A stretch of 64,000 bases of DNA from an uncultured Verrucomicrobiota bacterium (GCA_903854475.1 CAINWP010000076.1:58112-122111); one strand, 5' to 3'. Counted from the first letter of the stretch, positions 14,983-49,928 are shown. Numbers and translations are program-made. The notes: generated by a model not told the origin, from the letters alone.

Positions 14983-17138
<2,156 letters not shown>

Positions 17139-22446: not shown

Positions 22447-22537
22447 AGGAGGGGTTCGTCGAACAATGAGCCTGCTCTAAGCGGCACATTCCCCGGTTGC
22501 GCCAGACCGACCCGATGAGGTTGACTCTGGGTCTTCC

Positions 22538-23422: not shown

Positions 23423-23613
23423 CGCTCAGCGGGCCTGGAAGAGGGCGGTCCAAGAGGCCTAGAGACCTAGAGACCCAAAGCTTCGATTCATCTATCGGTC
23501 ACGGTCGCAGTTTTCAGACTAATCCTAGGGATGACCTTGGTTTCGCTTCGTTGAACTCCGGTGCCGTAATGGGCCCGGGGTTCTTAGTGTCGATAGAGCC
23601 CAGCTAGTGAGGA

Positions 23614-25677: not shown

Positions 25678-26060
25678 TCGGGCCGCGCGGTATCACCGAT
25701 TTGGGGGGTTCCATCGACGATGTCTGCGGCGGCGGTCGTTGGATTGCTCCATCGGGATAGCCGGACTCGGCCCACACGGTTGGACGAACGGTATACTTCC
25801 AGAAAGGAACCGGAGGGTGGCAGAGTGCTAAAGGAATAATCGAGGACTACAAACCGGAGGCGCTCATTGACCAGAACCACCGAGCCCACACTGGCATCGA
25901 GCGGGCGGATAACGGCTGGGAAGTCCGGAGCTGGCATGAGTATCTGGGCTCGCGAGGAGGCGGAGCATCCGCAAAGGGCCACCAAACCGACAACGAGAGC
26001 CGGCCCGAAGGCCGAGACCCATCCTCGGCGACGTAACCAATCCAAGAGAGGGGGCTGCAT
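25674..26060 (-). CDS. putative lipoprotein (128 aa), translationally coupled to the cytochrome gene
   Basis: ATG at 26060 (MQPPLLDWLRRRGW...LVALCGCSASS is signal plus Cys). Its stop overlaps the downstream start (ATGA at 25674-25677). Confidence 0.55.
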   Translation of the reverse strand: MQPPLLDWLRRRGWVSAFGPALVVGLVALCGCSASSRAQILMPAPDFPAVIRPLDASVGSVVLVNERLRFVVLDYSFSTLPPSGSFLEVYRSSNRVGRVRLSRWSNPTTAAADIVDGTPQIGDTARPD

Positions 26061-26363
26061 GGCGGACAGACAAGCATGCCCAGCGATCAGGTCAACCGTG
26101 TGGAGTGGCCAAAATTCGGTTCTGGCGTGCGGGATTGCTCCTGAGGCGTCGGCCGTTATGCTGCGACCTATGGATTGGCAGAAAATAGCGGCTCTGTGCG
26201 TGGTGGGAATCACGTTGGGGTTGTTCTTCTGGGCTCGATGGGGACCGCGGCGTTTGGGGAGCCGAGGGGGAGGGTGTGGCTGTTCGGGCGGCGCTTCAGC
26301 CAAGGCGGGACCTCGATTGATCGTGCAAGGTCGACGTGGAGAGCGTCCCCAGGTCCTTCTACG

Positions 26364-27107
26364 ATGAGCCTCATGCCTCTAGCAGTAAGGGTGTGTCTGC
26401 TGGTTCTTGTCGTTTGGACCGGACTGATGTCGGTCGCGGGCGCCGAAGAGTCCGCGGAGTCCCTGGGACGTGAGTGGGCCCAGCGGTTGCGCACGGTAGT
26501 TCCCCAAGATCCATCGACCAATCAGGCGGTCTTGAAGATCCGCAATCGGGAGGGACGCCGTCAGATTCCGGTGACAGTCATCACTCAACCGGGAAAGGGT
26601 CGTTGGTCGGTGGAATACCAAGTGGCAGGCGATGGCGGAAAGGGCGGGCGGGAGATTTCAAGGATCCACTACAATGCGGAGGGTCCTCCGACGTATGAAG
26701 CATGGGTCGAAGCTCCCGGGAAACCGTCCACCAAGGAGGGCCTAGCGCCTGGTGATAGAGTAATAGCTAACAGTGATTTTTTACTCAGTGAATTGGGTAT
26801 GGAGTTTCTTAACTGGAAAGAACAGCGCATTAACGGCCGAGAATTGAGCAATGGTCGATGGTGCAAGGTACTTGAAAGCACGTCCAAGAAACCCGAAGGA
26901 CCCGCGTCGGTCAGGTCGTGGATCGATGAAAAGCTGGGAGTGGTCTTGAGTGCTGAGGTTTATGACGCGCGCAACGTCCGACTCAAGCATTTCTCAATTA
27001 CCCAGTTCCGCGAGCAGGCTGACCGATGGACTTGCAGCGTGAGCATGGTCGACGACGTCCGCGGGACCAAGACCGAGTTGACGTTTGATGGCCCGGTTCC
27101 TCGATGA
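26364..27107 (+). CDS. LolA-like outer-membrane lipoprotein-sorting family protein (secreted)
   Basis: ATG 26364 with signal peptide MSLMPLAVRVCLLVLVVWTGLMSVAGA. About 250 aa with NSDFLLSELGMEF, resembling the SDFsyeDl motif of the LolA_like family. Confidence 0.5.
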   Translation: MSLMPLAVRVCLLVLVVWTGLMSVAGAEESAESLGREWAQRLRTVVPQDPSTNQAVLKIRNREGRRQIPVTVITQPGKGRWSVEYQVAGDGGKGGREISRIHYNAEGPPTYEAWVEAPGKPSTKEGLAPGDRVIANSDFLLSELGMEFLNWKEQRINGRELSNGRWCKVLESTSKKPEGPASVRSWIDEKLGVVLSAEVYDARNVRLKHFSITQFREQADRWTCSVSMVDDVRGTKTELTFDGPVPR

Positions 27108-34315: not shown

Positions 34316-34909
34316 ATGAAACGCTTGTCTCTAGCCTCCCTGTTGGCCATTTGTGGCCTAATTCTTTCTACCGCCACCGGGTCGCTCTTGGCCCAGAACG
34401 AGGCTCCGGCGGCCCAAGCCGGCGCACCCGGCGCACCGGGTGGCCCCGGCGGTCGCGGGGGTCGGGGCAATTGGGATCCCGAGCAAATGCGTCAACGCAT
34501 GATGGAGCGCATTCGCGAGCAGCTGGCCGTGAAAGATGATGCAGAATGGAGTGTCATTGAGGCCCGCATTAAGAAAATCAACGACTCCCGATCTGGCATG
34601 GGTCGAGGCTTCGGCGGTCCCGGCGGCGGCCCTGGCGGTCCTGGCGGTCCTGGCGGTCAAGGGGGCCAAGCCGGTCAGGGTGGTCGTCAGGGACGCGGCG
34701 GTTTCGGTCAGCCTAACCCGGATGCGGAGGTCTTGCAGACGGCCTTGGACTCTGGTGCCTCAGCCGATGATATTAAGGTTAAGCTCACGGCTTACCGCGC
34801 AGCGGCAAAGGTGAAGGAAGGTCAACTCGAGAAGGCTCAAGATGAACTTCGCCAACTCCTCTCCGTCAAGCAAGAGGCCCGCGCGGTTCTGCTCGGCTTG
34901 CTGAAGTAA
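34316..34909 (+). CDS. secreted Gly/Pro-rich helical protein (CpxP/Spy-like appearance), function unknown
   Basis: ATG 34316 with signal peptide MKRLSLASLLAICGLILSTATGSLLAQ. Contains GAPGAPGGPGGRGGRG and GGPGGGPGGPGGPGGQGGQAGQGG tracts between predicted helices. Confidence 0.6.
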   Translation: MKRLSLASLLAICGLILSTATGSLLAQNEAPAAQAGAPGAPGGPGGRGGRGNWDPEQMRQRMMERIREQLAVKDDAEWSVIEARIKKINDSRSGMGRGFGGPGGGPGGPGGPGGQGGQAGQGGRQGRGGFGQPNPDAEVLQTALDSGASADDIKVKLTAYRAAAKVKEGQLEKAQDELRQLLSVKQEARAVLLGLLK

Positions 34910-35052: not shown

Positions 35053-36825
35053 ATGGCTGAAGCCTCGACACCCACCCAAACGCTTCTCGATCACATGATC
35101 GCCGAGCGGCAACTTTCTGCCGTTGATGCGTTGGCGTTTGTCCAGGCCCGATCGATCAAGGGAGCTTCAAGCGAAGGGGGTGAGGAAGCTACCGAGCGGG
35201 ATGTCTTAGAATGGCTGAGCCACGAATATGGGGTGGGGTTTCTTCCTTTGGATTCGGTCGAGGCCGATCGCGAGGTACTGGCGCTCTTCCCGGCCCGAAT
35301 TCTCCTCAAGGAAGAACTGCTGCCGCTGCGCCGCGATCACGGTTCTATCGAGATCGCCAGCTGTCGCCTTTTTGCTACTCGGGGGCTGGACACACTCCGC
35401 TCCCTGACAGGCCTCCGTCTCAAATTGGTTTTGTCGCCGCGGGAGGCGCTCCTACGGGAGATGAAGAAGAATCTCGGAGTCGGCGCCGACACCATCGGCG
35501 CACTCGACGAAGAGAAATCTGTCCAGGTCGTCGATGAAAACACCGAGGAATCCAACCTCGACGCCGGAGCCGAGGATGAAGCGTCCATTATACGCTTCGT
35601 AAATCAGGTTCTTAAAGACGCCATTGAGCTGCGGGCTTCGGATATTCATCTGGAGCCCTTCGAGCACGAATTTCGTATTCGCTACCGCATCGATGGCGAA
35701 CTACAGGAAATCCCGCTTCCGGCACAGCTCAAGCAGTTCCAACCGGCCATCGTTTCACGGGTCAAGATCCTCAGTCATCTCAACATCGCGGAGAAGCGCT
35801 TGCCTCAGGATGGGCGTATTAAGGTTCGCATCGAAGATACCGAGGTCGATATCCGTGTTTCAGTGATTCCCATGCTCCACGGGGAGGCGGTGGTCATGCG
35901 TCTATTGCGGCAGAATTCGACCCTGCGGGGTCTGTCCCATATCGGTCTAGGAACCCGCGAGTTGGAGTGTTTTCGGAAGGTGCTGAATTTGCCGCATGGA
36001 ATCGTGTTGGTGACAGGCCCGACCGGCAGCGGCAAGACCTCGACTCTTTACACCGCCCTCAACGAGATCAACGACGAGGTCCGCAAGATCATCACGATCG
36101 AAGACCCCGTCGAGTATCAGCTTCGGGGCGTGAATCAAATCCAGGTTTCGGAGAAGGCCGGACTCACCTTTGCCCGAGGATTGAGGTCTATTCTTCGCCA
36201 CGATCCAGATGTCGTACTGATCGGTGAAATCCGAGATCGGGAGACAGCACAAATCGCGGTGCAGGCCTCGCTGACCGGCCATTTGGTGTTCTCCACGCTG
36301 CATACCAATGACGCCCCGGGCGCGCTGACCCGCTTGGTGGACATGGGGGTTGAGCCTTATCTGGTGGCGTCGTCTCTGGAAGCGGTTCTGGCCCAGCGGC
36401 TGGTTCGAGTCTTGTGTCCTCATTGCAAGGTTCCCGACACCTCGGCTCATGCGAACGCCTTCCGATCTCGCATGGGCATTGCTCCAGAGGTGGAACTCTT
36501 CAAGGGCGTAGGATGTCGCGAGTGCCGGCAAACTGGATTCTTCGGACGTCATGCCATCTTCGAATGGATGGACATCGATGAGAATATCCGTCGGCTGATT
36601 TTGGAAAATGGCTCCACCGACCAAATTCGTTCGGCCGCGCGAACTTCCGGCATGCGGACATTGGCTGAGGACGGCTGGCGGTTGGTAGCTCAAGGCATCA
36701 CGACCGTAGAAGAGGTCCTGAGCGTCACCACGGACAAGGAAACTCCGCGATCCCAGGCACCGGCCGATTCGGGTGAAGCCACCGACCAGACCCGTGGTTC
36801 CGGGGCATCGGGTTCACGCACCTGA
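35053..36825 (+). CDS. gspE: type II secretion / type IV pilus assembly ATPase (GspE/PilB family)
   Basis: N-terminal T2SSE_N-like domain, Walker A GPTGSGKTST, Walker B DPDVVLIGEIRD, His box GHLVFSTLHTN, and tetracysteine CPHCK...CRECRQTG. Confidence 0.9.
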   Translation: MAEASTPTQTLLDHMIAERQLSAVDALAFVQARSIKGASSEGGEEATERDVLEWLSHEYGVGFLPLDSVEADREVLALFPARILLKEELLPLRRDHGSIEIASCRLFATRGLDTLRSLTGLRLKLVLSPREALLREMKKNLGVGADTIGALDEEKSVQVVDENTEESNLDAGAEDEASIIRFVNQVLKDAIELRASDIHLEPFEHEFRIRYRIDGELQEIPLPAQLKQFQPAIVSRVKILSHLNIAEKRLPQDGRIKVRIEDTEVDIRVSVIPMLHGEAVVMRLLRQNSTLRGLSHIGLGTRELECFRKVLNLPHGIVLVTGPTGSGKTSTLYTALNEINDEVRKIITIEDPVEYQLRGVNQIQVSEKAGLTFARGLRSILRHDPDVVLIGEIRDRETAQIAVQASLTGHLVFSTLHTNDAPGALTRLVDMGVEPYLVASSLEAVLAQRLVRVLCPHCKVPDTSAHANAFRSRMGIAPEVELFKGVGCRECRQTGFFGRHAIFEWMDIDENIRRLILENGSTDQIRSAARTSGMRTLAEDGWRLVAQGITTVEEVLSVTTDKETPRSQAPADSGEATDQTRGSGASGSRT

Positions 36826-36828
36826 CCC

Positions 36829-38088
36829 ATGCCCACCTTCACCTACCGAGCACTCCAAGCCGATGGGCAGATGGCCGATGGCATCGCCGAAGCGGCCACC
36901 CGTCCCGAAGCCTTGCGGGTCATCGAAGCGCGAGGGCTTCGTCCCGTCAGCGTCATCGAAGCCCGCGGCAGCGGAAAACCAACCGTCAAATCAGCCAAGG
37001 ATTCAGCCGCCCCCACTCAGGGAATGGGCGGGTGGTCGTTGGGTGGTTCCAAGGTGAGTTCGGAGGAATTAGAGAATTTCACTCGGTTGCTCTCCAGCCT
37101 ACTCGCCGCGGGGGTACCGTTGAGTCGGGCGCTGACCATCCTTGGTAAGGAGGCGTCGTCGCCGGTGGCCTCGGCAAAGTGGCGTGAAATCCATAGTCTG
37201 GTGGTGGATGGTATGTCCCTGGCCAGTGCCATGGCCCGATCCCCGGAAACGTTCCCGAAAGTTTATACGGCGATGGTCGAGGCCGGTGAGGCCGGCGGAT
37301 TTCTCGATGTCGTCCTCGCGCAAATCGCAGACTTCCAGTCCCGAGAAAAGGAGCTCCGATCCAAGGTGCTCACGGCGATGATCTATCCAGCCGTACTGTT
37401 GCTGATGGCCGTGGTGGTGCTGAGCGTGCTGCTGGTCTTTTTCATTCCCAAATTCCAGAAGGTTTTCACCAGCGTGAAAGGCGGCTTGCCCCTCATCACC
37501 CAAATTATTATCGCCACCAGCGACATCTTGCGTTCCTACGGGCTGTTGGTGTTGGTCGGGTTGGTACTGGGGAGTTTCTTTTTGAGAACCTGGATCGTCT
37601 CGCCCGCGGGCCGACGCATTTGGGAAGGGTTGACTTTGAAAGCTCCGGTCGTAGGTCCGCTCAGTGCCCGATTTGCGATGGCGCGTTTTTGCCGAATGCT
37701 GGGGACCTTGATTGGAGCCGATGTCCAGTTGGTTCAGGCACTGAATGTGGCGCGCCGTTCGATTGGTAACCAGATCTTGGTGGATGCTGTGGCACGTTCG
37801 ATCGACCAGGTGCAGCAGGGTGGACGTCTCGGCCAGAGTTTGGCGGAGTGTCCCACCCTCTTCAGCGGGTCCGTGATGGAGATGATCTCGGTGGCGGAAG
37901 AGAGTGGGCGACTGGATGTCGAACTCATCCGCATCGCCAACGTCACGGAGAGTGAATTAGACCGACGTCTTAAAACTGCGGTGGCCTTGGCCGAGCCGTT
38001 GCTCCTCTTCCTGATCGCCGGTTTTATCGGCTTCATCTTTATCGGCATGCTGCTTCCGGTTTTCTCGCTGCAAGACTACATCAAGTAA
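36829..38088 (+). CDS. gspF: type II secretion system F-family platform protein (GspF/PilC)
   Basis: Two T2SSF repeats with three TM segments. Starts 3 nt after the gspE stop. Confidence 0.9.
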   Translation: MPTFTYRALQADGQMADGIAEAATRPEALRVIEARGLRPVSVIEARGSGKPTVKSAKDSAAPTQGMGGWSLGGSKVSSEELENFTRLLSSLLAAGVPLSRALTILGKEASSPVASAKWREIHSLVVDGMSLASAMARSPETFPKVYTAMVEAGEAGGFLDVVLAQIADFQSREKELRSKVLTAMIYPAVLLLMAVVVLSVLLVFFIPKFQKVFTSVKGGLPLITQIIIATSDILRSYGLLVLVGLVLGSFFLRTWIVSPAGRRIWEGLTLKAPVVGPLSARFAMARFCRMLGTLIGADVQLVQALNVARRSIGNQILVDAVARSIDQVQQGGRLGQSLAECPTLFSGSVMEMISVAEESGRLDVELIRIANVTESELDRRLKTAVALAEPLLLFLIAGFIGFIFIGMLLPVFSLQDYIK

Positions 38089-38102
38089 TTCCTTCTGACC
38101 TC

Positions 38103-38558
38103 ATGAACCTGAACCTCACCCTTCGTCCCCAGGCAGGAGCCTTCGCCGGCAAGACACGTCGTCGCCACCGTGGTTTCACGTTGGTTGAGATGCTGTTGGT
38201 CATCACCATTATCGGGATTTTGGCCGCACTTGTGGTGCCCAAGATGATGGGTCGCAGCGAACAGGCCCGACAGTCGGCAGCACGCGCCGACATCGCCTCA
38301 ATCAAAACGGCTCTAGACGCTTACGAGGTGGACAATGGCACCTACCCGAAGGCCTTGGCCGACCTCATTCAGGCCCCGCGGCAGGCCCGCAACTGGCGCG
38401 GACCTTATTTGGACAAGGTCCCTCAAGATCCGTGGGGCAACGAATACCAGTACGCTCAACCTGGACGACAGAATTCTACCTCCTTCGATTTGTCCTCCAT
38501 AGGGCCAGACGGTAAGGCAGGAACCGAGGATGACTTTGGCAACTGGACGGCGAAATAA
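38103..38558 (+). CDS. gspG: major pseudopilin GspG
   Basis: Prepilin motif G/FTLVEMLLVITIIGILAALVVP. GspG core ARADIASIKTALDAYEVDNGTYP...WRGPYL...DPWGNEYQY...GPDGKAGTEDD. Confidence 0.9.
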   Translation: MNLNLTLRPQAGAFAGKTRRRHRGFTLVEMLLVITIIGILAALVVPKMMGRSEQARQSAARADIASIKTALDAYEVDNGTYPKALADLIQAPRQARNWRGPYLDKVPQDPWGNEYQYAQPGRQNSTSFDLSSIGPDGKAGTEDDFGNWTAK

Positions 38559-39132
38559 GAGTCACAGCCCCAAGGGTTCGCGGCAGCAGGGCTTCACCTT
38601 GATTGAAATGATTCTGGTGATGGCGTTGTTGGTTGTCGCTGTCTCGATGGTGTCTCCGCGCCTGTCGGGATTCATCCGCGGACGAGCCTTGGAGTCCGAA
38701 GCCCGTCGGGTTCTAGCCCTGACGCATGCGGCCCGGAGTCGGGCTATTTCCGAGAGCATGCCCGTCCTACTGTGGCTCGACGCCACCGTCGGGCGCTATG
38801 GTGTCGAGCGCGAGACTCCGGGCCAAAAGGGTGATCCGTTGGCTCAGGAGTTCACCGTCGATGACCATCTCCGGATCGCTTTTGATCAGGCCCAGCGCCT
38901 TATCGGCCAGACGTTGACGAGTACCCGCACCACGGGGTTGCTGCCCGGAATCTCCAGTTCTCAAAGACCCACCAACGCCCGGACCGAACCGTCGATCCGA
39001 CTCCTGCCGGATGGGACCATCGATGAGGACAGTCCTAACGCCATTCGCATCGAAGACTCCGATGGGTCCGTGCTGTGGCTCGTCGAAGGGTCGGACCGCC
39101 GCCATTATGAAATTCGCACCGGTCTCCAATAA
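38530..39132 (+). CDS. minor pseudopilin, GspH/FimT-like
   Basis: G/FTLIEMILVMALLVVAV N-methylation motif, then SGFIRGRALESEARRVLALTHAARSRAIS typical of GspH. Confidence 0.75.
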   Translation: MTLATGRRNKSHSPKGSRQQGFTLIEMILVMALLVVAVSMVSPRLSGFIRGRALESEARRVLALTHAARSRAISESMPVLLWLDATVGRYGVERETPGQKGDPLAQEFTVDDHLRIAFDQAQRLIGQTLTSTRTTGLLPGISSSQRPTNARTEPSIRLLPDGTIDEDSPNAIRIEDSDGSVLWLVEGSDRRHYEIRTGLQ

Positions 39133-39529
39133 CCGTCGGCGAGCGGGATACACCCTGGCGGAGACGCTGGCGGCCCTCCTCTTTTTGGCCATCGTCATCC
39201 CCGCCGTGGTCGAGGCGCTGCATGTGGCGGGGCGAGCCGGCACCGTATCTATACGCCGGGCTGTGGCCGCCCGCATTGCCGAACGGATGCTCACCGAGGC
39301 GACCCTCTACACCAATAGCAGCGCCACGCAAAGCGGGACTCAGGTCGAGGGAACGGTGGACTACCAGTGGACGGTGACCCGCGAGAACTGGGTGCAAAGC
39401 AGCCTACCGCTATTGACGGCCGAGGTCCGCTTTTTGACCCAGGGACAGGAGTCCTCGGTTCGGTTCTCTACGCTGGGTCACCCCGTCGATGCCCTCCCCG
39501 GAAGCAGCAGTAGCACCGCCCCCCGATGA
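39107..39529 (+). CDS. minor pseudopilin, GspI-like
   Basis: ATG 39107. Prepilin motif RRAG/YTLAETLAALLFLAIV with Glu at +5. Size about 140 aa. Confidence 0.7.
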   Translation: MKFAPVSNNRRRAGYTLAETLAALLFLAIVIPAVVEALHVAGRAGTVSIRRAVAARIAERMLTEATLYTNSSATQSGTQVEGTVDYQWTVTRENWVQSSLPLLTAEVRFLTQGQESSVRFSTLGHPVDALPGSSSSTAPR

Positions 39530-40230
39530 CCATCCCCGTTTCATCCAGAAGCAGGACTTCAATGGGGTTCACGTTGATCGAACTGATTCTCTCGATCGGG
39601 GCGGCAGCCCTCATCCTTATCGTCGCCAATCAGGTTCTTTTCACGAGTCTTCGGCTCCGCAACACGGTCTCTGATGCGATTGAATCGGCGGCCCCTCTGG
39701 AGTTGGCGCTCGATGCCCTGCGCCAAGACCTCAAGGGTGCGGTGACCCCGAAGACCAATGGACTCATCTCCGGCTCCTTCCGCGCCGGTACCTTGTCCAG
39801 CACGGTCAATGCCCAACCCGTTTCGCTCGAGTTCAATACGACTACCGGTTCCCTGCGGGCTTCAGAGCCTTGGGGTGTGGTCCAACGGGTTTCTTACAGT
39901 CTGCGGAATTCGGTTGAAGGAGGATCGGCGGAGATGGATCTCTATCGGGGCGTGTGCCGAAATCTCCTGGCCATCTCTGTAGCCGAGGTCGAGGACCAAC
40001 TCCTCTTGCGCGATGTGGCTCGTCTGGATGTTGAATCCTTTGATGGGATTCAGTGGCTTTCCCAATGGGACACCACCGATACCTTTGGTAGTACCACCAA
40101 TCTTCCGGTGGCCGTGCGTATTCGTCTCCAGCGTGGGGTTTCTTGGGGTCCCGACCCGGGACTCGTCGAATTATTGGTGCCCGTGAGCGCCCAGACACGC
40201 ACCAACTCCACCAGCACCGTCGGAGGCTGA
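39526..40230 (+). CDS. minor pseudopilin, GspJ-like
   Basis: MG/FTLIELILSIGAAALILIV prepilin motif. ATGA overlap with the upstream gene. Confidence 0.7.
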   Translation: MTIPVSSRSRTSMGFTLIELILSIGAAALILIVANQVLFTSLRLRNTVSDAIESAAPLELALDALRQDLKGAVTPKTNGLISGSFRAGTLSSTVNAQPVSLEFNTTTGSLRASEPWGVVQRVSYSLRNSVEGGSAEMDLYRGVCRNLLAISVAEVEDQLLLRDVARLDVESFDGIQWLSQWDTTDTFGSTTNLPVAVRIRLQRGVSWGPDPGLVELLVPVSAQTRTNSTSTVGG

Positions 40231-40232
40231 GC

Positions 40233-41663
40233 ATGGTACTTCAAACCCTGAGCCAGAAAATGAGGACGCGGGCGGTCCTAGACCGGCCCAAGCTCCAGAT
40301 GGATCGTCGCGCCGGGTCCCGGGCGTCGGTTCTGGTGGTGGTGCTGTGGATCACGGCTGGATTGACCGCGCTGGTTCTCTACTTTGCAGCCTCCATGAGT
40401 TTGGAGTTGCGGGCTTCGGCCAATCGAGCGGCCGACCTGGCGGCCGGTCAGGCCATCGAGGGCGCCGCGCGCTATGTGGGATGGGCCTTGGCTCAGTTCG
40501 CCACCAACGGGATGATGACCACCAATTCCCAGTTTGTTTGCCAGGCTTTGCCCATCGGAGAATCTCAGGTCTGGATTTTGGGCCGCAATCCGGCCCCCGC
40601 AGAATCCGGGCTCAACCAGTTGGTTTTTAACCTTCAGGACGAGTCGGGAAGGCTCAATCTCAACCGGGCCAATTCCAATGCTCTTTCGATGTTGCCTGGG
40701 ATGACCACCGAGTTGGCTGCCGCCATCGTGGATTGGAGGAGCACCAACGGGACCTTGCAGTTGGGTTATTCGAGTTTGGGCTATGAAGCCAAGCGGAGTC
40801 CGTTTGAAACGGTCGATGAATTGCGCTGGGTCCAGGGCATTACCTTAGATCACCTCTTCGGGGACGATCGCAACCAGAACGGGGTTCTCGACCCAGACGA
40901 ACGCAGCCTCACTGGATCCTTGTATTCGACTCCGGGCCTATTGGATACGACCACCGTCTTCAGTCGGGAGCCCAATTTCCATGCCGATGGCACTCTCCTC
41001 ACCAACGTCAATATCCGAGCCCAAATCCAGGGATTGCTCGATTCGTCCTTCGGCACCGGCCGTAGCCGCGAAATTCTCACTCGCTTAGGCTTCACCCAGG
41101 GCGGGGGCCCTGGGGGAGGAGGCGGGGGAGGAGCCGCGGCTGCGACGCCCAATTTCCCGAGTTTACTGCGTTTTTATCTAACCAGCGGTCTAAGCCAAGA
41201 TGACTTCGAACGCATCGCCCCGGAACTTTGCGTCACCACCAATACTTACAGCTATGGGCGGGTGAACCTGAATACGGCCAACGCCACGGTCCTCACTGCA
41301 CTTTTTGTTGGGGCGGGCTTGGCTCAAGAAGCTGCAGAGGGCGCGGCATCGACACTCGTTCAGTATCGGGAACAAAATACGACGAGCCTGAATTCCATCG
41401 CTTGGATGGTGGCCGCACTCGGTCGTGATCATCAGGCCGTAACCACTTTGGCTGGCCGCGATCTCCTTACGACCCGGAGCTTCCAATATGGAGCCGACCT
41501 GGTGGCCGTGGGGCCCTTGGGCCGAGGTTATCGCCGAGTGAAGTTCATTTTTGATATCAGTGATGGAGTCCCGAAGATCCTTTACCGTCAGGATCTCAGC
41601 CGATTGGGCTGGGCATTGGGCGACCGTGTCCGTGAGCAGATCGCCCAGCAAATCGATCGCTAG
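40233..41663 (+). CDS. GspK-like minor pseudopilin with helix-hairpin-helix motifs
   Basis: Hydrophobic N-terminus SVLVVVLWITAGLTALVLYF without Glu+5 (as in GspK). LNLNRANSNALSMLPGMTTELAAAIVDWR and VNLNTANATVLTAL are HhH/SAM-like motifs typical of GspK. Confidence 0.7.
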   Translation: MVLQTLSQKMRTRAVLDRPKLQMDRRAGSRASVLVVVLWITAGLTALVLYFAASMSLELRASANRAADLAAGQAIEGAARYVGWALAQFATNGMMTTNSQFVCQALPIGESQVWILGRNPAPAESGLNQLVFNLQDESGRLNLNRANSNALSMLPGMTTELAAAIVDWRSTNGTLQLGYSSLGYEAKRSPFETVDELRWVQGITLDHLFGDDRNQNGVLDPDERSLTGSLYSTPGLLDTTTVFSREPNFHADGTLLTNVNIRAQIQGLLDSSFGTGRSREILTRLGFTQGGGPGGGGGGGAAAATPNFPSLLRFYLTSGLSQDDFERIAPELCVTTNTYSYGRVNLNTANATVLTALFVGAGLAQEAAEGAASTLVQYREQNTTSLNSIAWMVAALGRDHQAVTTLAGRDLLTTRSFQYGADLVAVGPLGRGYRRVKFIFDISDGVPKILYRQDLSRLGWALGDRVREQIAQQIDR

Positions 41664-41683
41664 ATGAAGGCCCAGACCACCCC

Positions 41684-43126
41684 ATGATGAATTTTCTGAA
41701 ACTGGGTTCCCGTCCGCGCAAAGCCCCGCCCTCCGTACTGGGGCTTTCGTGGGAGGGCCGTCGCATCGAGGGCAGCCTCTTGCGCCGGACTCAGAACGGG
41801 ATTGAGAAAACGCTCGGATTTCAGGCCGAACTGTCTCTGGACATTGATTCGGGTGATCCTGAAACCGTCGGCAAGGAGTTACGGGCTCAGCTAGATCAGG
41901 CTGGTATTCGGGAACGCACCTGTGCGGTGGCCCTGTCGGTTTCTAGCCTGCTGGTCACCCAGACTGAAATTCCAGTCTTGGCCGATGCCGATGCACACAG
42001 CTTGTTGCAACTGGAGGCGGAGAAGGGTTTTCACGGCGACGCTTCGACCCATCAGGTGGCCCACTCGCGCTGTGTCCGGGGTGAGGGTAGCCAATGGGTG
42101 ACCTTAGCCGCATTGACGCAATCTCGTTTGGCCTCTCTGGAACGTTGGACTCGTTCTGCGCGCCTCAAGTTGGTGAGCGTTTCGGCGACCCTGTGCGAGC
42201 TCCAGCCTCCTGAAAATCCTGCCTCGGAGGGGGTCCTCGCGTTGCACCTCGGATCCGGGCCGGGTCCGGTGACACTCCAGATGAGCGCTGGAGGCGGTCT
42301 GGTGGCCTTGCGTTCCTTCGAGGGCGTTACCGAAGACCCGTCTGGCCGACCGGTTTTACATGCCGACAGCGTCGCACGGGAGATTCGGATTACGTTGGGG
42401 CAACTCCCAGATCCTTGGAATGGCTCCATTCGCGATGTTCGCATCTTTGGCCCCCAAGACCTGGCGCAAACGCTGGCCGCTGAGCTGTCCACGCGATTGT
42501 CGGTGGCCGGTTTCCGCATCCGCCCCCAGACCACCGAAGTGCCCGGGTTGGCCTCGTCTCAAGAGCTCCCAATTTCAGCGGTGGTCGCAGCCCGTGTACT
42601 GGCCTCGCGGCCGGCGACCCTCGAGTTCCTGCCGCCCAAGCCATCGGTGTTCCAACAATTCTTGGCCCGTCACGCCCAAGGGCAGCGACGCACGGTCTGG
42701 ACGGTCGCCGGCGGCGTGGCTGTCCTGGTGGCTCTGGCTTTCCTGATTCAGCAAATCCAACTCTCGCTCTTGGAATCCCGTTGGGCGGGTCTCTCAGGCA
42801 AGGTCCGGGAGCTGGAACGCATCCAGCAAGATTTGCGACAATTCCGACCTTGGACCCCTCAGTCGGCCCGGGGCTTGGCGATTTTGGAGGTTCTGACGAG
42901 CGCCTTCCCCGAGAACGGATCGGTGACCGCCAAGGTCATCGAAATTCGAGAATCGGGCGAGGTGGTCTGCAGTGGCACGGCCACCGATAATCCGGCTTTT
43001 TTGGCCATGACGGCCCGTCTGAGCGCCTTGCCCGGAGTCCTCAAGGTTCACCACGACCAATCCCGTGGTGTTTCTCCGATGCAGTTCAACCTCACCTTCG
43101 TCTGGAATGGAGGCATGGCCCGATGA
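41684..43126 (+). CDS. PilM-like cytoplasmic domain fused via one TM helix to a PilN-like periplasmic domain (GspL-equivalent)
   Basis: The N-terminal ~330 aa show a PilM/actin-like pattern (VLGLSWEGRRIEGSLL...CAVALSVSSLLVTQTEIPVL...LLQLEAEKGF). TM helix TVWTVAGGVAVLVALAFLIQQI. Coiled-coil plus ferredoxin-like C-terminus. Confidence 0.6.
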   Translation: MMNFLKLGSRPRKAPPSVLGLSWEGRRIEGSLLRRTQNGIEKTLGFQAELSLDIDSGDPETVGKELRAQLDQAGIRERTCAVALSVSSLLVTQTEIPVLADADAHSLLQLEAEKGFHGDASTHQVAHSRCVRGEGSQWVTLAALTQSRLASLERWTRSARLKLVSVSATLCELQPPENPASEGVLALHLGSGPGPVTLQMSAGGGLVALRSFEGVTEDPSGRPVLHADSVAREIRITLGQLPDPWNGSIRDVRIFGPQDLAQTLAAELSTRLSVAGFRIRPQTTEVPGLASSQELPISAVVAARVLASRPATLEFLPPKPSVFQQFLARHAQGQRRTVWTVAGGVAVLVALAFLIQQIQLSLLESRWAGLSGKVRELERIQQDLRQFRPWTPQSARGLAILEVLTSAFPENGSVTAKVIEIRESGEVVCSGTATDNPAFLAMTARLSALPGVLKVHHDQSRGVSPMQFNLTFVWNGGMAR

Positions 43127-43659
43127 ATCCCACCCAACGTCAACGTCTCCTCATGATCGTGACCCTGGCCGCAGTGGGTCTCTACATCGCCGACCTCGTG
43201 TTCATCACGCCGATGGGCCGAGCTTGGTCGGAGCGCTCAGCACGCATCGCCACGCTGCAGCGTCAGGTGAGCGAGGGACGGGCGTTGATCCAGCGCGAGG
43301 GAGGACTTCGGGATCAGTGGAACCACTTGCGCACCAACGCCCTGCCGCATGAACCGTCCCAGGCCGAGCAACGTCTGCTTCGGGCCTGCGATGAATGGGC
43401 CAAGGCGTCCGGGGCTCAAATCGTGGATCGAATGCCGCAGTGGAAGGGCGACGAAGCCGCCTACCAACTGTTGCGGTGTCGCCTCGAGACTTCCGGGTCT
43501 CTCGCGAGTTTGACTCAGTTTATCCAGCGGATTGAAGAGGGTCCGTTGGCCGTCAAGGTCGATAGCCTTCAGATGATGAGCCGCGATCCGGCCGGTCGTC
43601 AGTTGACTCTCAGCCTCCAAATCAACGGCCTCGTGCTCAATCCCTCGTCTAAGCCATGA
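43123..43659 (+). CDS. PilO/GspM-like bitopic assembly protein
   Basis: N-terminal TM helix LLMIVTLAAVGLYIADLVFI, a coiled-coil, then a C-terminal alpha/beta domain. ATGA overlap on both sides. Confidence 0.55.
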   Translation: MNPTQRQRLLMIVTLAAVGLYIADLVFITPMGRAWSERSARIATLQRQVSEGRALIQREGGLRDQWNHLRTNALPHEPSQAEQRLLRACDEWAKASGAQIVDRMPQWKGDEAAYQLLRCRLETSGSLASLTQFIQRIEEGPLAVKVDSLQMMSRDPAGRQLTLSLQINGLVLNPSSKP

Positions 43660-44270
43660 AGGTTCCTCCCTCAATTTGGATTGGTTTCCTAGTGGCCGAG
43701 GTCCTGTTTGGGTCCTTGCTGGGTTTCGCTGCCGAGACTCATCCGACGCCGGTGATCGACTCCAAGGAGGTGGCGCGTCGGGTGGGCGATCGAAACATTT
43801 TCGATCCAGAAAGGCAGCCCAAGATCCGGGGTGAATCTCGACCGGCACCCAAGCCGAAGGCGGTGGCCTCGGCTGACGCCCCTGAGTTTGGACTCGTGGG
43901 AGTCATAACCTATCCGAGAGGCACCTTTGCCTTCTTTGACGGCAACACCGCGGACCTTCGCAAGACCCTCCAGGTGAACGCGGTCATCGCCGGCCAGACC
44001 CTGAGCCTCGTTTCTCCCCAGTCGGTCACCTTGTTAGGGTCCAATCGCCCTCCAGTTTTGCTGAAGGTGGGTCAACGGCTCCGTCAAGATTCGGAGGGCG
44101 CTTGGCAATTGTTGTCCGGCACCGGCGGAGATGGGTTCAAGCGAGTGGGCTCAGCCGAGGGAGCGACCGGAACAGCGGCCGCCTCGTCGACGACTCCGAG
44201 CGAGGACCCCCCGGGATCCGATGAAATTTTGAAGCGGCTTTTGAAAAAACGGGAACAGGAGATGAAATGA
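43656..44270 (+). CDS. PilP/GspC-HR-like periplasmic protein
   Basis: N-terminal hydrophobic anchor. Beta-rich core FGLVGVITYPRGTFAFFDGNTADLRKTLQVNAVIAGQTLSLVSPQSVTLL resembles the PilP/GspC homology region. Confidence 0.5.
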   Translation: MKVPPSIWIGFLVAEVLFGSLLGFAAETHPTPVIDSKEVARRVGDRNIFDPERQPKIRGESRPAPKPKAVASADAPEFGLVGVITYPRGTFAFFDGNTADLRKTLQVNAVIAGQTLSLVSPQSVTLLGSNRPPVLLKVGQRLRQDSEGAWQLLSGTGGDGFKRVGSAEGATGTAAASSTTPSEDPPGSDEILKRLLKKREQEMK

Positions 44271-45553
44271 AGACCTTGATCACTCGAGCCTTTGGCGCCG
44301 CCTGTGCTGTGGGATGTTTGGCTGGCGGCCTGTTAGCTCAGGATGCCGGTGCACCCACTAGCAATGCCCCAGCCACCACCCGAACGGAAACGACCACGAG
44401 TCCGTCGCCCGCGCCCCGGGAACAGAACTCGGCGGCCGGCAGTGCTGCGGGGATTCAGATGAATTTCAGGAATGCTCCATTGGAGCAGGTTCTTGAATAC
44501 CTGAGCGAAGCGGCCGGTTTCATCATCGTTTTGGACGCGCCTATTAAGGGCACCGTCAACGTGATTAGCGCCAAGCCCATGAGTCAGGACGAGGCGGTGG
44601 ATTTTCTGAGTTCAGCACTCAACAAGAATGGTCTGGCCGCCATTCGGGATGGTCGAACTCTGACCATTATCGACCGCACAGCGGCCAAGACCCGGGACAT
44701 CCCGGTGAAGGTGAACAACGATCCCCGGATGATTCCGAAGAACGATGAGATCGTGACGCAAATCATTCCGATCCGATACGTCGAGGCCGATCAATTGGCC
44801 AAGGATCTCGTCTCCTTCATTTCGCCTCAGGCGACCTTCGTGGCTAATGCCGCCGGCAACTCCATCGTGATGACGGACACCCAAGCCAACATTCGGCACA
44901 TGGTGGAGATCATCAAAGCCATCGACTCGAGTGCCGAAGCCGAGACCGAAATTCGTGTGTTCCATCTGACCCATGCCAGCCCTTCCGATGTGGCCACCGC
45001 CCTGGCTGGGGTGTTTCCCACCAGCAGCGGGTCGGGAAACAACAATCAGGCGCCGGTCCGGTTTGGTGGGGGACCCTTCGGAGGAGCAGGAGGTTTTGCG
45101 GCAATGATGGGAGGCGGCGGTGGTGGCGGTGGACGAGGCGGCGGTGGCGGTGGTGGTGGTAATTCCGCGTCCGGACAAAACGATCGGATCCGTCGTGCAT
45201 CGCAGGTCATGGCGGTGCCCGATTCACGGACCTCTTCAGTCATCGTGACCGCTTCCAAGAATCTGATGACACAGATTGCGGGTATGGTGCGCGAATTGGA
45301 TGTGGTTTCCACACGGGACCAGCAAGTGCACGTGTTTCGTATGAACAACGGCGATCCTCAGCAGGCGGCGCAGGTGCTGCAGAACATGTTCCAGAGCACA
45401 TCGGGCAGCCGGACAGGCGCCAGTGGCAGTGCTCAGAACAGTGCGCTCATGCAGCGCCAGCAAAACAACAACCAGACCACGGGCAGCACCTCTAGTGGAT
45501 CGGGTACCTTTGGGAATAGCGGCGGTGGCCGCTCCGGCGGGCAACTGTTCTGA
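44267..45553 (+). CDS. secretin N-domain protein (N0 + two complete and one half N1-type modules; no secretin C-domain)
   Basis: Signal peptide. N0-like MNFRNAPLEQVLEYLSEAAGFIIVLD...GRTLTIID. Modules IIPIRYVEADQLAKDL...IVMTDTQANIRHMVEIIKAIDS and IRVFHLTHASPSDVATALAGVF-[polyGly]-VMAVPDSRTSSVIVTASKNLMTQIAGMVRELD. Ends with VHVFRMNNGDPQQAAQVLQNMF plus a S/G/N/Q-rich tail. Confidence 0.8.
   Translation: MKTLITRAFGAACAVGCLAGGLLAQDAGAPTSNAPATTRTETTTSPSPAPREQNSAAGSAAGIQMNFRNAPLEQVLEYLSEAAGFIIVLDAPIKGTVNVISAKPMSQDEAVDFLSSALNKNGLAAIRDGRTLTIIDRTAAKTRDIPVKVNNDPRMIPKNDEIVTQIIPIRYVEADQLAKDLVSFISPQATFVANAAGNSIVMTDTQANIRHMVEIIKAIDSSAEAETEIRVFHLTHASPSDVATALAGVFPTSSGSGNNNQAPVRFGGGPFGGAGGFAAMMGGGGGGGGRGGGGGGGGNSASGQNDRIRRASQVMAVPDSRTSSVIVTASKNLMTQIAGMVRELDVVSTRDQQVHVFRMNNGDPQQAAQVLQNMFQSTSGSRTGASGSAQNSALMQRQQNNNQTTGSTSSGSGTFGNSGGGRSGGQLF
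45064..45160 (+). repeat. GGN-codon low-complexity tract (poly-Gly loop insertion)
   Basis: Encodes GGGPFGGAGGFAAMMGGGGGGGGRGGGGGGGG inside an N-domain loop. Confidence 0.8.
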
Positions 45554-45579
45554 ACTTAAGAACCTTGAACGATTCTAGA

Positions 45580-46896
45580 ATGAAAACCAGTGGTTCTATC
45601 CTTTCGCGATTCCTTTCCACGGCCCCGGTGCTCCGCGTGTTGGTCGCGCTCCTCGGATTGTCCCTAGTCCTACCCGCCATAGCCCAACAGCGCGGCGGTG
45701 GTGGTGGTGGCGGGTTTGGTGGTGGCGGTGGATTCGGCGGCGGCGGCGGGTTTGGCGGCGGCGGGTTTGGTGGTGGTGGCGGAGGCAATCGAGGCACCGG
45801 ATCCTCGGGTCTCTATAACAACAATGGCACTGTTGGCAGCGCCCTCATCACGGTGGATCCGCAGACCCACAATCTCGTGGTCATCGCCGACGCCCTGACG
45901 GCCCTGCAAATTAGCAACGTCATCCGGAATCTCGACTCACCTAAGCCGCAAGTGCTTATCAAGGTGGTCTTCATGGAGGTTCAGCGAAACAACGGCTCCG
46001 AACTCGGAGTCGAAGGCGCTTGGGCCAAGAACAACATTGGAAACAACATTAGCAGCGGCGGTGGGACCGTGATGGGTCTATCCGGGGTCAACACGATTAC
46101 CACCAACTTGAACGGCTTGGGGCAATCGATGGGAACGGCACTGACTCCGTCCTCCACCGGCAGCGGTTCCGGTGGTCTTTATTCCATCGCCGGCTCCGAG
46201 TTTCAGGCGACGCTCCGAGCTGTGGCTACATCGGGTAAAGCGCAGGTTTTATCCCGTCCGTCGATCATCGCCCGCGATGGGCAATTGGCGCGCATCGTGG
46301 TCGGTCAACAAGTGCCCCTGCCCAGTGGCGTTTCCTATGCGGCTTCGGGTAACAACACCATCCCCATTATTAACGTCACCTACAATGACGTGGGCATCAT
46401 CCTTAACGTCACTCCATTCATCGGTTCTAATGGTCAAGTCGAGATGATCGTCCAACCGCAAATCTCTTCAGTTTCACCGACTGAAAAGCAGTTCTTGTCG
46501 GCCGATGTTTCGGCTCCTTACATCAATGTCCGTTCAGCCGACACCGTGGTGGTCACTCCAAATGCGGAGACTGTTGTCATTGGCGGACTCATCTCGAATA
46601 ACCAATCCCAGAGCGAGAAGAAGGTTCCGTACTTGGGTGATATCCCGATTCTGGGCAATTTGTTCAAGACTCGCGCCAAGAGCGACGCCAAGACCGAACT
46701 GCTCATCTTTCTGACGCCCTACATTCTCCAGGCACCTTCTCAGTTGGCTCAATTGACAACGAAGGAAACCCACCAAGCGTCGTTGATCACCAATTCGGTC
46801 TCAGAGATGGATCTCAACCGATTCCTTGAAAAGGTTCCGGTCAAATCAGACGCCCCGGCCCCGGCCCCTAAGTCCAAGGGATTCTTCAAAAAGTGA
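45580..46896 (+). CDS. secretin (GspD/PilQ family C-domain) with its own signal peptide and poly-Gly N-terminus
   Basis: ATG 45580 with signal peptide MKTSGSILSRFLSTAPVLRVLVALLGLSLVLPAIA. A (G4-5F)n tract follows, then ITVDPQTHNLVVIADALTALQISNVIRNLD. Secretin core: QVLIKVVFMEV...SRPSIIARDGQLARIVVGQQVP...VGIILNVTP...VPYLGDIPILGNLF...ELLIFLTPYIL. Confidence 0.85.
   Translation: MKTSGSILSRFLSTAPVLRVLVALLGLSLVLPAIAQQRGGGGGGGFGGGGGFGGGGGFGGGGFGGGGGGNRGTGSSGLYNNNGTVGSALITVDPQTHNLVVIADALTALQISNVIRNLDSPKPQVLIKVVFMEVQRNNGSELGVEGAWAKNNIGNNISSGGGTVMGLSGVNTITTNLNGLGQSMGTALTPSSTGSGSGGLYSIAGSEFQATLRAVATSGKAQVLSRPSIIARDGQLARIVVGQQVPLPSGVSYAASGNNTIPIINVTYNDVGIILNVTPFIGSNGQVEMIVQPQISSVSPTEKQFLSADVSAPYINVRSADTVVVTPNAETVVIGGLISNNQSQSEKKVPYLGDIPILGNLFKTRAKSDAKTELLIFLTPYILQAPSQLAQLTTKETHQASLITNSVSEMDLNRFLEKVPVKSDAPAPAPKSKGFFKK
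45694..45787 (+). repeat. tandem GGN/TTY-codon tract encoding (GGGGGF)n
   Basis: ggcggtggtggtggtggcgggtttggtggtggcggtggattcggcggcggcggcgggtttggcggcggcgggtttggtggtggtggcggaggc. Confidence 0.8.
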
Positions 46897-48476: not shown

Positions 48477-49928
48477 ATGCACCCGCAGTTGCCGACACCC
48501 ATCTTGGAATCCCTCAAGGCCTCCACGCGGCGGCGTTTTCTCCAGCACTGTGGCACCGGCATGGGCGCCTTGGCATTGAGCACCTTGCTCAACCCGTCAT
48601 TGCAGGCCGGCACTCAGGAATCGGGAACCGCGTTCAAGGCCCCGCACTTCGCCCCTAAGGCCAAGAACATCATTTACCTGTTTCAGTCCGGTGGGCCCTC
48701 GCACCTCGACCTCTTCGATCCCAAGCCGGAGCTCACTAAGCGCAACGGCCAACGGGTCCCCGAGGAGTTGGTAAAAAACATACGGTTGGCTCAGATCGGC
48801 AAGGAGTCCAAGTTGCTGGCTTCTCCTTATCAGTTTGCCCGACACGGCAAATCCGGGGCCTGGATAAGTGAACTCCTGCCCCAGTTGGGTTCCATTGCTG
48901 ACGATGTCTGTTTCGTGAAGGGCTTCTACTCCGAGGCATTTAACCATGACCCGGCGACCTTGTTCATGAACACCGGAGCTCAGTTGGCGGGTCGGCCGGG
49001 CATGGGTTCGTGGTTCAGCTACGGCCTGGGCAGCGAGAACAAGGACTTGCCGGCCTTTGTGGTGATGATGACGGGCGTCGGACAGCCCCTCACCAACGCG
49101 GCTTGGGGCAGCGGCTTCTTACCGACGGTGCATCAGGGCGTTACATTGCGCTCACAGGGTGATCCGGTGCTGTACGTCGGAAATCCGCCGGGCATGGATC
49201 GCAAACGCCGTCGCCAAACATTGGATGTCCTTCGGGACCTCAATCAGGCGCGTTTCGATGTCTTGCAAGATCCAGAGATCCAGACACGAATCGCCTCCTA
49301 TGAGCTCGCCTACCGCATGCAAACCAGTGTGCCCGAGGTCATGGATATCACGGGCGAAACAGCGCGTGTCCATGAGGCCTACGGGACAACTCCCGGACGG
49401 GCTTCTTTCGCCAACAACTGCCTACTGGCCCGTCGATTGGTCGAGCGTGGAGTTCGCTTTGTCCAACTCTACCACCGGGGCTGGGATCATCATGGCGGGC
49501 CCGACGGCAATTTGGTCTTTGATCTCAAGAAGCGTTGCGCCGAGACCGATCAGCCGTCTGTTGCCCTCATCAAGGACCTCAAGGAGCGTGGTCTTCTCGA
49601 CGAAACCTTGGTCCTTTGGGGCGGAGAGTTTGGTCGGACTCCGATGATGCAAGGAGCTCTCAAGCCAGACCAGATCGGTCGAGATCATCATCCGCATGGG
49701 TATACCATTTGGATGGCGGGTGGCGGTATTAAGCCAGGCACAGTTTACGGCGGGACCGATGATTTCGGTTTTTATGCCACTGAAAACAAGGTTCACGTGC
49801 ACGATTTGCATGCCACTCTCCTGCACCTCTTCGGCATGGATCACCATAGGCTTACCTACCGATTCCAAGGGCGTGATTTCCGTCTCACTGACGTCCATGG
49901 AGAGGTGATACAGGGAATCTTGGCCTAG
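48477..49928 (+). CDS. DUF1501 domain protein (sulfatase-fold), Tat-exported
   Basis: Twin-arginine signal STRRRFLQHCGTGMGALAL. DUF1501 hallmarks: IIYLFQSGGPSHLDLFDPKP, FVVM..., WDHH, GEFGRTP, GRDHHP. Confidence 0.85.
   Translation: MHPQLPTPILESLKASTRRRFLQHCGTGMGALALSTLLNPSLQAGTQESGTAFKAPHFAPKAKNIIYLFQSGGPSHLDLFDPKPELTKRNGQRVPEELVKNIRLAQIGKESKLLASPYQFARHGKSGAWISELLPQLGSIADDVCFVKGFYSEAFNHDPATLFMNTGAQLAGRPGMGSWFSYGLGSENKDLPAFVVMMTGVGQPLTNAAWGSGFLPTVHQGVTLRSQGDPVLYVGNPPGMDRKRRRQTLDVLRDLNQARFDVLQDPEIQTRIASYELAYRMQTSVPEVMDITGETARVHEAYGTTPGRASFANNCLLARRLVERGVRFVQLYHRGWDHHGGPDGNLVFDLKKRCAETDQPSVALIKDLKERGLLDETLVLWGGEFGRTPMMQGALKPDQIGRDHHPHGYTIWMAGGGIKPGTVYGGTDDFGFYATENKVHVHDLHATLLHLFGMDHHRLTYRFQGRDFRLTDVHGEVIQGILA

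Follow-up and report, generated by a model that had tools for sequence, protein, structure and literature searches.

A secretin encoded by two genes and divided within domain N3 in a type II secretion locus of Verrucomicrobiota

The locus and its closest described counterparts

Secretins are usually thought of as single chains. They have been described as bimodular, with a C-module (N3, barrel and S) and an N-module (N0-N2) connected by a flexible junction, and debate continues over the relation between the flexible periplasmic N-module, a pore of 15-fold symmetry and inner-membrane partners of 12-fold symmetry (PMC10550240). Rhizobial-type type III secretion systems (T3SS; RhcC1/NolW and RhcC2) characteristically have split secretins, the meaning of which is unknown, and so has the T3SS-2 of P. 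syringae (HrcIIC1/C2) (PMC3574062). In the mitochondrial type II secretion system (miT2SS) of some protists, GspD is split into GspD, GspDL and GspDN1-3, of which GspDN3 corresponds to the N-terminal and GspDN2 to the C-terminal half of one Secretin_N domain (PMC8134430). Here we describe a locus in a 64,000-nucleotide (nt) stretch of DNA from an uncultured Verrucomicrobiota bacterium (GCA_903854475.1, CAINWP010000076.1:58112-122111; hereafter the window), in which two genes, both with a signal peptide, encode the GspD of a type II secretion system (T2SS), and the cut between them falls inside the ring-building domain N3. We consider it probable that, as a whole, this is a complete but divergent T2SS of freshwater Verrucomicrobiota with a two-polypeptide secretin, the parts of which would complement each other in N3.

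The locus consisted of 12 tightly packed open reading frames (ORFs), all in one direction on the + strand (35053-46896). It resembled the canonical proteobacterial T2SS (Gsp/Pul/Xcp/Xps/Eps) in the order E-F-G-H-I-J-K-L-M, with C and D, in a major pseudopilin of the GspG family, a GspK tip protein lacking Glu+5 and proteins that are probably an XpsM-type GspM and an HR-type GspC, and in the N0-N1-N2-N3 and barrel content of its secretin. It differed in several respects. The secretin comprised two genes cut in N3, the L position was occupied by a full-size PilM fused to PilN, and C and D ended the operon, with no gspO, gspN or pilotin gene present. A Gly-rich periplasmic protein was encoded upstream, and the secretin carried Gly/Phe-rich disordered inserts. 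The locus is a T2SS of a distinct and widely conserved verrucomicrobial type, of which the two-gene secretin, the PilM-PilN protein, the disordered inserts and the extra periplasmic protein are the unusual features.

The PilM-PilN-PilO-PilP-PilQ set of the type IVa pilus (T4aP) was matched in part, by an L protein with the PilM fold, a PilN-like motif, a transmembrane (TM) helix and a periplasmic domain, and by an M protein distantly related to PilO. Unlike in T4aP, PilM and PilN formed one chain, the O and P positions scored better as GspM and GspC, and there was no PilT (in the 64-kb window), PilA-type pilin or AMIN-domain PilQ.

The Rhc-type T3SS also has separate genes for the N- and C-terminal parts of the secretin, conserved within the family, but it is a different machine and the event an independent one; SctC models scored far below GspD on our pore protein (106.8 versus 249.3 bits). 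The rhc halves usually lie apart or in different operons, whereas those described here were adjacent, 3-40 nt apart in nearly all callable loci, and cut inside N3. With the miT2SS the locus shared the same kind of half-domain fission. The miT2SS, however, has neither N0 nor GspC and is a eukaryotic system with its genes in the nucleus, and no specific bacterial source of it has been identified.

Division of GspD within N3

The GspD model TIGR02517 (600 positions) was covered by two consecutive proteins. Positions 1-296 matched the 428-aa product of gspD-N, the secretin N-module gene (44267-45553, + strand; E 3.6e-57), and positions 294-600 the product of gspD-C, the gene of the secretin pore (45580-46896, + strand, 438 aa; E 7.5e-74), for which an alternative TTG start at 45565 gives a 443-aa ORF. 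GspD-N also matched PF21305 and PF03958. GspD-C matched PF00263 (E 6.9e-48) and had T2SS GspDs as its best PDB matches; the PilQ and MshL models matched at E 1.8e-49 and 3.8e-49. No polypeptide carried all the GspD domains, N0-N1-N2-N3 and the barrel being spread over two genes. A preliminary description of this DNA, made by a model from the sequence, had listed an N-domain protein and a secretin as two genes, and did not recognise the split as unusual.

GspD-N consisted of a signal peptide, N0, N1, N2 with a Gly-rich low-complexity loop (45020-45193), the first half of N3 and a low-complexity Ser/Asn/Gln/Gly tail (45395-45550) that ended in GGQLF. The segment following N2 was QQVHVFRMNNGDPQQAAQVLQNMF, continued by this polar Gly-rich tail. 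In GspD-C, a signal peptide (ending in LPAIA, followed by QQ) was followed by a Gly/Phe-rich low-complexity stretch at the mature N-terminus (GGGFGGGGGFGG..., 45691-45822), the second half of N3, the secretin beta-barrel and a 55-aa tail. Between the (G)nF-rich stretch and the barrel the sequence was LITVDPQTHNLVVIADALTALQISNVIRNLD. A lipoprotein signal in GspD-N was considered and rejected, since the Cys was not conserved. The tail of GspD-N often ended in an aromatic residue among the orthologues (GGQLF, NLF or RTY), recalling the C-termini of outer-membrane proteins.

The first half of N3 (beta1-alpha1; 45317-45394, + strand) corresponded to residues 351-376 of GspD-N, and the second half (beta2-beta3-alpha2; 45838-45942, + strand) to residues 92-126 of the 443-aa ORF. 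Against the Secretin_N model of 69 positions, the first half alone covered positions 1-26 (17.5 bits) and the second half alone positions 31-69 (15.8 bits). Joining the halves gave a match to positions 1-69 with 35.2 bits, which exceeds the gathering score (28.2). For a diverse set of orthologue pairs, the joined halves matched Secretin_N in 18 of 18 cases (best E 5e-15), and a profile of the joined constructs aligned over its whole length to N3 in solved GspDs (5zdh 241-323, 5wln 243-329 and 6i1x 148-235). From these tests and the alignment we placed the cut in the alpha1-beta2 loop of N3. The stitched N3 and its halves were also scored with a clade-specific hidden Markov model (HMM) of N1, which proved too narrow to be informative (median 2-4 bits). 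The cut so placed lies close to where PMC10550240 draws the line between N-module and C-module.

We propose the following mode of assembly. Sec would export the two polypeptides independently of each other. GspD-C, with its half of N3, the beta-barrel and the tail, would form the multimeric outer-membrane pore, and GspD-N (N0, N1, N2 and the other half of N3) the periplasmic rings. The two may then join by complementation of N3 in trans, with beta1-alpha1 supplied by GspD-N and beta2-beta3-alpha2 by GspD-C, so that the N-module would be a non-covalent, separately exported subunit docked under the pore. This junction may be assisted or stabilised by the disordered segments (Gly/Phe-rich and Ser/Asn/Gln/Gly-rich) and possibly also by the Gly-rich protein encoded upstream.

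Alternatively, both proteins are functional and the N3 halves do not complement each other. In that case GspD-N would act as a ring or adaptor in the periplasm, either free or bound to GspC, that contacts the pore transiently or through the disordered Gly-rich tails, with the half-domains pairing elsewhere or staying unfolded. Long disordered segments separated each half from its chain end, and complementation found no structural support: a single-sequence AlphaFold2 (AF2) model of residues 228-428 of GspD-N fused to mature GspD-C gave a mean predicted local distance difference test (pLDDT) score of 32.3 and was meaningless. Half N-domains also exist as separate proteins in the miT2SS, where their assembly is unknown (PMC8134430). 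On the other hand, the two halves made up exactly one Secretin_N in all 18 pairs and aligned to the N3 of solved GspDs. The beta1-alpha1 half was moreover the most conserved segment of GspD-N, as expected of an obligate interface; its mean identity was 0.83 (56 orthologues), compared with 0.72 for the second half and 0.71 for the barrel core. We therefore consider this alternative unlikely.

A scan of species-representative genomes with patterns derived from the secretin N-protein yielded 77 loci in other genomes with identical gene order, the whole 12-gene order being intact wherever the contig was long enough. The recurrence of the same order in 77 loci indicated that the arrangement was not due to chance. 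Nearly all of these loci were in Verrucomicrobiota metagenome-assembled genomes (MAGs) of lake, river and soil origin.

The adjacent ORFs, their different frames in the window and the error-prone low-complexity G-rich DNA that flanked the junction could suggest that an ordinary one-gene gspD had been disrupted by a frameshift, had become a pseudogene or had been misassembled. However, in the loci that contained both secretin parts (74 of the 77), these were separate ORFs in 74 of 74, at 42-100% identity and with frame offsets of 0, 1 and 2, a count that measures the stability of the split within the clade and not its extent, as the loci were found with N-protein patterns. The separation thus held down to relatives of 42-46% identity. 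In the 61 loci with a callable start after the N-protein stop, the second ORF opened with a signal peptide and continued with a Gly/Phe-rich run, and in 58 of them this start lay no more than 40 nt from the stop. The exact L protein was present on 11 contigs of independent assemblies, and where these reached the secretin genes, the genes were separate (427/428 and 438 aa). The best 120 homologues of the N-protein (62-100% identity) were 334-451 aa long and contained N0 and Secretin_N without the Secretin domain, and both N3 halves were strongly conserved, ranking with the best-conserved segments of their proteins. An error of this kind is hardly credible, and on these comparisons, which point to a genuine two-gene state, we dismissed artefact and pseudogene alike.

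An exhaustive search of 1.84 billion cluster representatives gave 9264 relatives. Among the best 150 of these, 118 were shorter than 1,000 aa (250-915 aa), and 117 of the 118 had no secretin domain.

One of these proteins without a secretin domain came from a MAG labelled Candidatus Sumerlaeia (locus L082; GCA_039683515.1, JBDKRG010000040.1), which had the same 13-gene arrangement, counting the gene upstream of gspE, with a separate 422-aa Secretin protein. The similarity of its proteins was about that of distant Verrucomicrobiota. This may reflect horizontal transfer, shared ancestry or mis-binning.

Literature searches turned up no account of a bacterial T2SS with a split GspD, or of a verrucomicrobial T2SS, which is weak evidence in view of the incomplete coverage. 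In the locus described here the chain is cut almost at the boundary between the modules, and the cut has been kept across a large and diverse clade. The locus thus offers a natural system for asking whether secretin modules assemble, exchange or differ in copy number, and a bacterial parallel for the split secretins, as yet unexplained, that occur in the rhizobial T3SS and the mitochondrial T2SS.

A joint reading goes further, in that the split would be functional and not a tolerated fission, the Gly/Phe segments would form an FG-like junction, and the lineage would be kin to the source of the miT2SS GspD. Taken together these propositions are quite unlikely. If the functional split were true, N-modules that are fewer or exchangeable could sit under a 15-mer pore, which would answer the 15:12 symmetry mismatch between secretin and GspC. 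About 45 Gly/Phe-rich and polar disordered segments per channel, with the thirteenth protein, would make up a cohesive FG-like junction or a permeability barrier of the vestibule. The kinship, in turn, would make the bacteria with a half-domain-split GspD relatives of whatever lineage gave rise to the multi-part mitochondrial GspD.

The L, M and C positions and the assignment to type II secretion

The gene at the L position (41684-43126, + strand) encoded a 480-aa protein, the own sequence of which matched no family in Pfam or NCBIfam. It contained an actin-like PilM domain (residues 1-310), the segment EFLPPKP (314-320), a long helix with a TM segment at about 338-360, and a periplasmic domain (392-474) predicted by AF2 as alpha-beta-beta-alpha-beta-beta. 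This is the fold type of PilN, PilO, GspL and GspM. The F-L-P-P motif (E314-P320; 42623-42643, + strand) stood directly before the membrane helix. Its residues F315, L316, P317 and P318 were invariant in 42 sequences, and the segment was modelled as a confident coil (pLDDT about 79). We take this motif to resemble the N-terminal peptide of PilN that binds PilM.

A profile of 42 homologues of the L protein matched in the PDB the PilM of Myxococcus (3jc8, E 1.9e-6) and of Thermus (2ych, E 6.3e-5). When the AF2 model (pLDDT 83.4) was compared by Foldseek, the first match was the PilM:PilN structure 5eou (E 6.5e-16), followed by FtsA and then by the cytoplasmic domains of EpsL/GspL/PulL. EpsL (1yf5) was matched with E 2.7e-11 and a TM-score of 0.66 on the target, and ranked lower than PilM. 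Pfam PilN was matched by 12 of the 42 orthologues, and the HMM search with GspL models gave no match in the window protein or its 42 orthologues. The PilM-TM-PilN fusion proposed in the preliminary description was thus borne out by the PDB profile, the Foldseek ranking and the PilN matches.

GspL has been regarded as a fused equivalent or homologue of PilM and PilN, and PilMNOP homologues as normal constituents of the T2SS (PMC6668835). The 480-aa protein also has the domain layout of GspL, in which an actin-like cytoplasmic domain, a TM segment and a ferredoxin-like periplasmic domain follow one another. Since GspL is itself regarded as a homologue of PilM and PilN, we interpreted the fusion at the L position as an L-equivalent and not as evidence of a pilus. 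The 480-aa protein is an L-equivalent of an archaic or T4P-like form (T4P, type IV pilus).

The next two positions had been called PilO-like and PilP/GspC-HR-like, and neither scored best in that way. The 178-aa protein (gspM; 43123-43659, + strand) matched GspM_XpsM (NF040576) over model positions 4-177 of 180 (E 1.7e-9; 37.6 bits, cut-off 60), and in Pfam T2SSM_b (E 2.8e-4) came ahead of PilO (E 3e-3). For the 204-aa protein (gspC-like; 43656-44270, + strand), GspC_delta (NF041515) was matched by 19 of 20 orthologues (best E 6.9e-9, all below the cut-off of 150), while the window copy itself gave a weak match (E 0.0067); pilP_fam was matched by 1 of the 20 (0.034), and in Pfam the C-like orthologues had no match. 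Searches of PDB sequences with the M-like and C-like family profiles gave no meaningful match.

The gspC-like protein had an N-terminal membrane anchor, an RNIFDP motif and an HR-type beta domain, without a PDZ domain. Its C-terminus (44211-44267) was a strongly conserved amphipathic helix, aligned as D/E-[IV]-LKRLLKKREQEMK. Where canonical GspC has a PDZ or coiled-coil domain, this protein has the short conserved LKRLLKKREQEMK helix.

Of the other components, the preliminary assignments (E, F, G, H, I weakly, J, K, Secretin_N/N0 and Secretin) agreed with Pfam and NCBIfam. The secretion ATPase GspE (35053-36825, + strand, 590 aa) matched PF00437 with E 2e-137, and TIGR02533 GspE with 600.8 bits (cut-off 630.25), 44 bits more than PilB (556.3). 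Its N-domain was of the MshEN type, with a cyclic di-GMP-binding motif that appeared degenerate by eye, and CxxC...CxxC motifs were present. The inner-membrane platform protein GspF (36829-38088, + strand, 419 aa) contained PF00482 in two stretches and scored 340.1 bits with TIGR02120 GspF (cut-off 424), versus about 250 with PilC.

The major pseudopilin GspG (38103-38558, + strand, 151 aa) scored 143.7 bits with TIGR01710, exceeding the equivalog cut-off of 88.85, and matched PF08334 with E 1.7e-32; the PilA_Myxo model gave 43 bits (cut-off 400). Four proteins, G, H, I and J, had prepilin-type leaders. The minor pseudopilin GspH (38530-39132, + strand, 200 aa) matched N_methyl, PF12019 GspH (22.8 bits, gathering score 21) and TIGR01708 (E 4.5e-13). 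GspI (39107-39529, + strand, 140 aa) had the leader AGYTLAE and only weak matches (TIGR01707 gspI, E 0.0019; T2SSI, E 0.09), and was therefore assigned by position and size. GspJ (39526-40230, + strand, 234 aa) matched PF11612 T2SSJ (41.5 bits, gathering score 28) and TIGR01711 (E 4.7e-7). The minor pseudopilin GspK (40233-41663, + strand, 476 aa) matched NF037980 GspK (E 5.1e-15), T2SSK_1st (28.9 bits, gathering score 26.2) and HHH_3 (E 2e-11), with a helix-hairpin-helix in its alpha-domain and a leader without Glu+5. The earlier view of a T2SS-like pseudopilin set with a K protein lacking Glu+5 was in agreement with GspG lying above its cut-off and H, J and K above their Pfam gathering scores.

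The best-scoring model was a T2SS model for GspE, F, H, J, K and M and for both GspD halves. The preliminary description had leaned towards a true T2SS/T4P hybrid, and a T4aP- or MSH-like pilus machine that builds a surface filament and does not secrete would be a related possibility. The PilM-PilN-like L protein, the MshEN-type N-domain of GspE with PilB a mere 44 bits behind, and the matches of the pore protein to MshL and PilQ models are in keeping with it. However, GspG exceeded its equivalog cut-off, GspK was large and without Glu+5, and the M and C proteins scored as GspM and GspC. The secretin had the N0-N1-N2-N3 layout of GspD and scored far higher as GspD than as PilQ (194 and 249 bits for the N-protein and the pore protein, versus 47 and 169), no PilT was found in the window, and PilMNOP homologues are normal in T2SS (PMC6668835). 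A pilus machine or true hybrid is thus decidedly improbable.

The hybrid description holds for the 480-aa PilM-PilN fusion and fails for the M and C positions. HMM matches to GspL, GspM and GspC at these three positions had been named beforehand as what would speak against it; GspM and GspC_delta matches were found for M and C, at sub-threshold scores, and no GspL match for L.

Several points weigh against our own reading of the locus as a complete T2SS with N3 complementation. The scores of GspE (600.8 versus 630), F, H, I, J, K, M, C and both D halves were below the curated cut-offs, so that membership in the T2SS rests on best-hit logic and synteny. The L-equivalent was nearer to PilM/PilN than to GspL in the PDB profile, the Foldseek comparison and the orthologue HMMs. 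No cargo, pilotin or peptidase was identified. To these are added the selection of the loci by N-protein patterns and the meaningless model of the fused secretin, both described above.

By analogy with known T2SS, GspE would power the assembly of the GspG pseudopilus on the GspF platform, with GspH-I-J-K as its tip. The PilM-PilN chain, in the role of GspL, would together with GspM couple the ATPase to the periplasm, and GspC would form the bridge to N0 of the secretin. The proteins pushed out through the secretin would be folded periplasmic ones, probably hydrolases. The prepilin peptidase would be encoded elsewhere in the genome.

A different cargo may also be considered, namely exopolymeric slime or polysaccharide, as reported for myxobacterial and cyanobacterial GspD/PilQ secretins. 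The GspC was of the "delta" (myxobacterial) type, and one paper links T2SS secretins to the secretion of slime (PMC12475490). Export of such a non-enzyme cargo is very improbable: no polysaccharide synthesis or export genes were conserved beside the cluster, an ExoD-like gene downstream was found only in close relatives, and a complete pseudopilus set was present.

Operon structure, flanking genes and related secretins

The 12 co-directional ORFs and their coordinates agreed with those of the preliminary description. With the most plausible start choices, on which both coordinates and junction lengths depend, the junctions measured +3 (E/F), +14 (F/G), -29 (G/H), -26 (H/I), -4 (I/J), +2 (J/K), +20 (K/L), -4 (L/M), -4 (M/C), -4 (C/D-N) and +26 nt (D-N/D-C), all four 4-nt overlaps being ATGA. 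ATGA overlaps at 39526, 43123, 43656 and 44267 and the 26-nt gap before the secretin ATG had been reported before and were found again. The gaps of 2-20 nt described for other junctions were confirmed for E/F, F/G, J/K and K/L; G/H and H/I were overlaps instead. A single operon-like cluster with T2SS-type pseudopilins was supported. In a promoter and terminator consensus scan the counts were not above those of shuffles, with no bearing on a single operon either way. The 12 genes, possibly 13, probably form one transcription unit.

The thirteenth gene (34316-34909, + strand) encoded a periplasmic protein of 197 aa. It had a signal peptide and two Gly-rich stretches, and its conserved helices carried the motifs WDPxQMxQRMME and LSVKQEAxAVLLGLL. 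It lay immediately 5' of gspE in at least 41 related loci (35-93% identity), and also in the Sumerlaeia-labelled locus (E 1.9e-29). No match was found in Pfam or NCBIfam; by eye, the protein looks like a Spy/CpxP-type chaperone. Its Gly-rich runs were similar to the low-complexity segments of the secretin proteins.

Downstream of gspD-C were apgM, for a cofactor-independent phosphoglycerate mutase (PhosphMutase/Metalloenzyme; 46909/47065-48294), and a gene for a DUF1501 protein (48477-49928). The apgM, DUF1501, YqeY and ExoD genes were syntenic in close relatives only. Membership of apgM and DUF1501 in the system was considered and rejected, as they were conserved in only 14 close relatives. 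With the upstream gene kept widely and the downstream genes only in close relatives, we concluded that the conserved unit comprises 13 genes.

A prepilin-peptidase motif was absent from every plausible ORF of the 64-kb window, which also contained no second GspE/PilT-like ATPase, platform protein or further secretin; ten mid-sized ORFs of the window gave no relevant match in Pfam. The earlier observation that the cluster lacks a prepilin peptidase and PilT therefore extends to the whole window. In the TXSScan model of the T2SS, the prepilin peptidase gene is a "loner" that may sit elsewhere in the genome (PMC6668835). Its absence from a T2SS locus is normal, and that of PilT is expected in a T2SS.

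Verrucomicrobiota are abundant polysaccharide degraders of fresh water and soil. Their T2SSs may be undercounted, since each secretin half may fall below the secretin threshold and a model that expects GspL misses the PilM-PilN fusion. Five of the 77 loci (L008-L010, L031 and L035) were deposited as "Akkermansia muciniphila" and four (L039, L063, L065 and L074) as "Bifidobacteriaceae". These labels are implausible for MAGs with the verrucomicrobial cluster and are probably taxonomy-assignment errors in the deposits.

The same protein family included other architectures. P0341 (915 aa) was an unsplit relative with N0, five Secretin_N domains and Secretin, and P0260 (894 aa) was an N-protein of the split type that had five N-domains and lacked a barrel. 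Giant secretins (P0244, P0269 and 30 others), 2679-5532 aa in length, were found among the best 150 cluster representatives; no description of them was found in the literature, which is again weak evidence as the coverage was incomplete. The secretin family thus spans 5 to 35 or more N-domains, and the periplasmic conduit appears unusually plastic. P0269 (3423 aa) was composed of N0, 35 Secretin_N repeats and a C-terminal Secretin domain. P0244 (5532 aa; positions 10001-26599 of locus L083) had 46 matched stretches and ended a T2SS-like cluster of E, F, G, H, I, J, K and a 655-aa PilM_2 protein.

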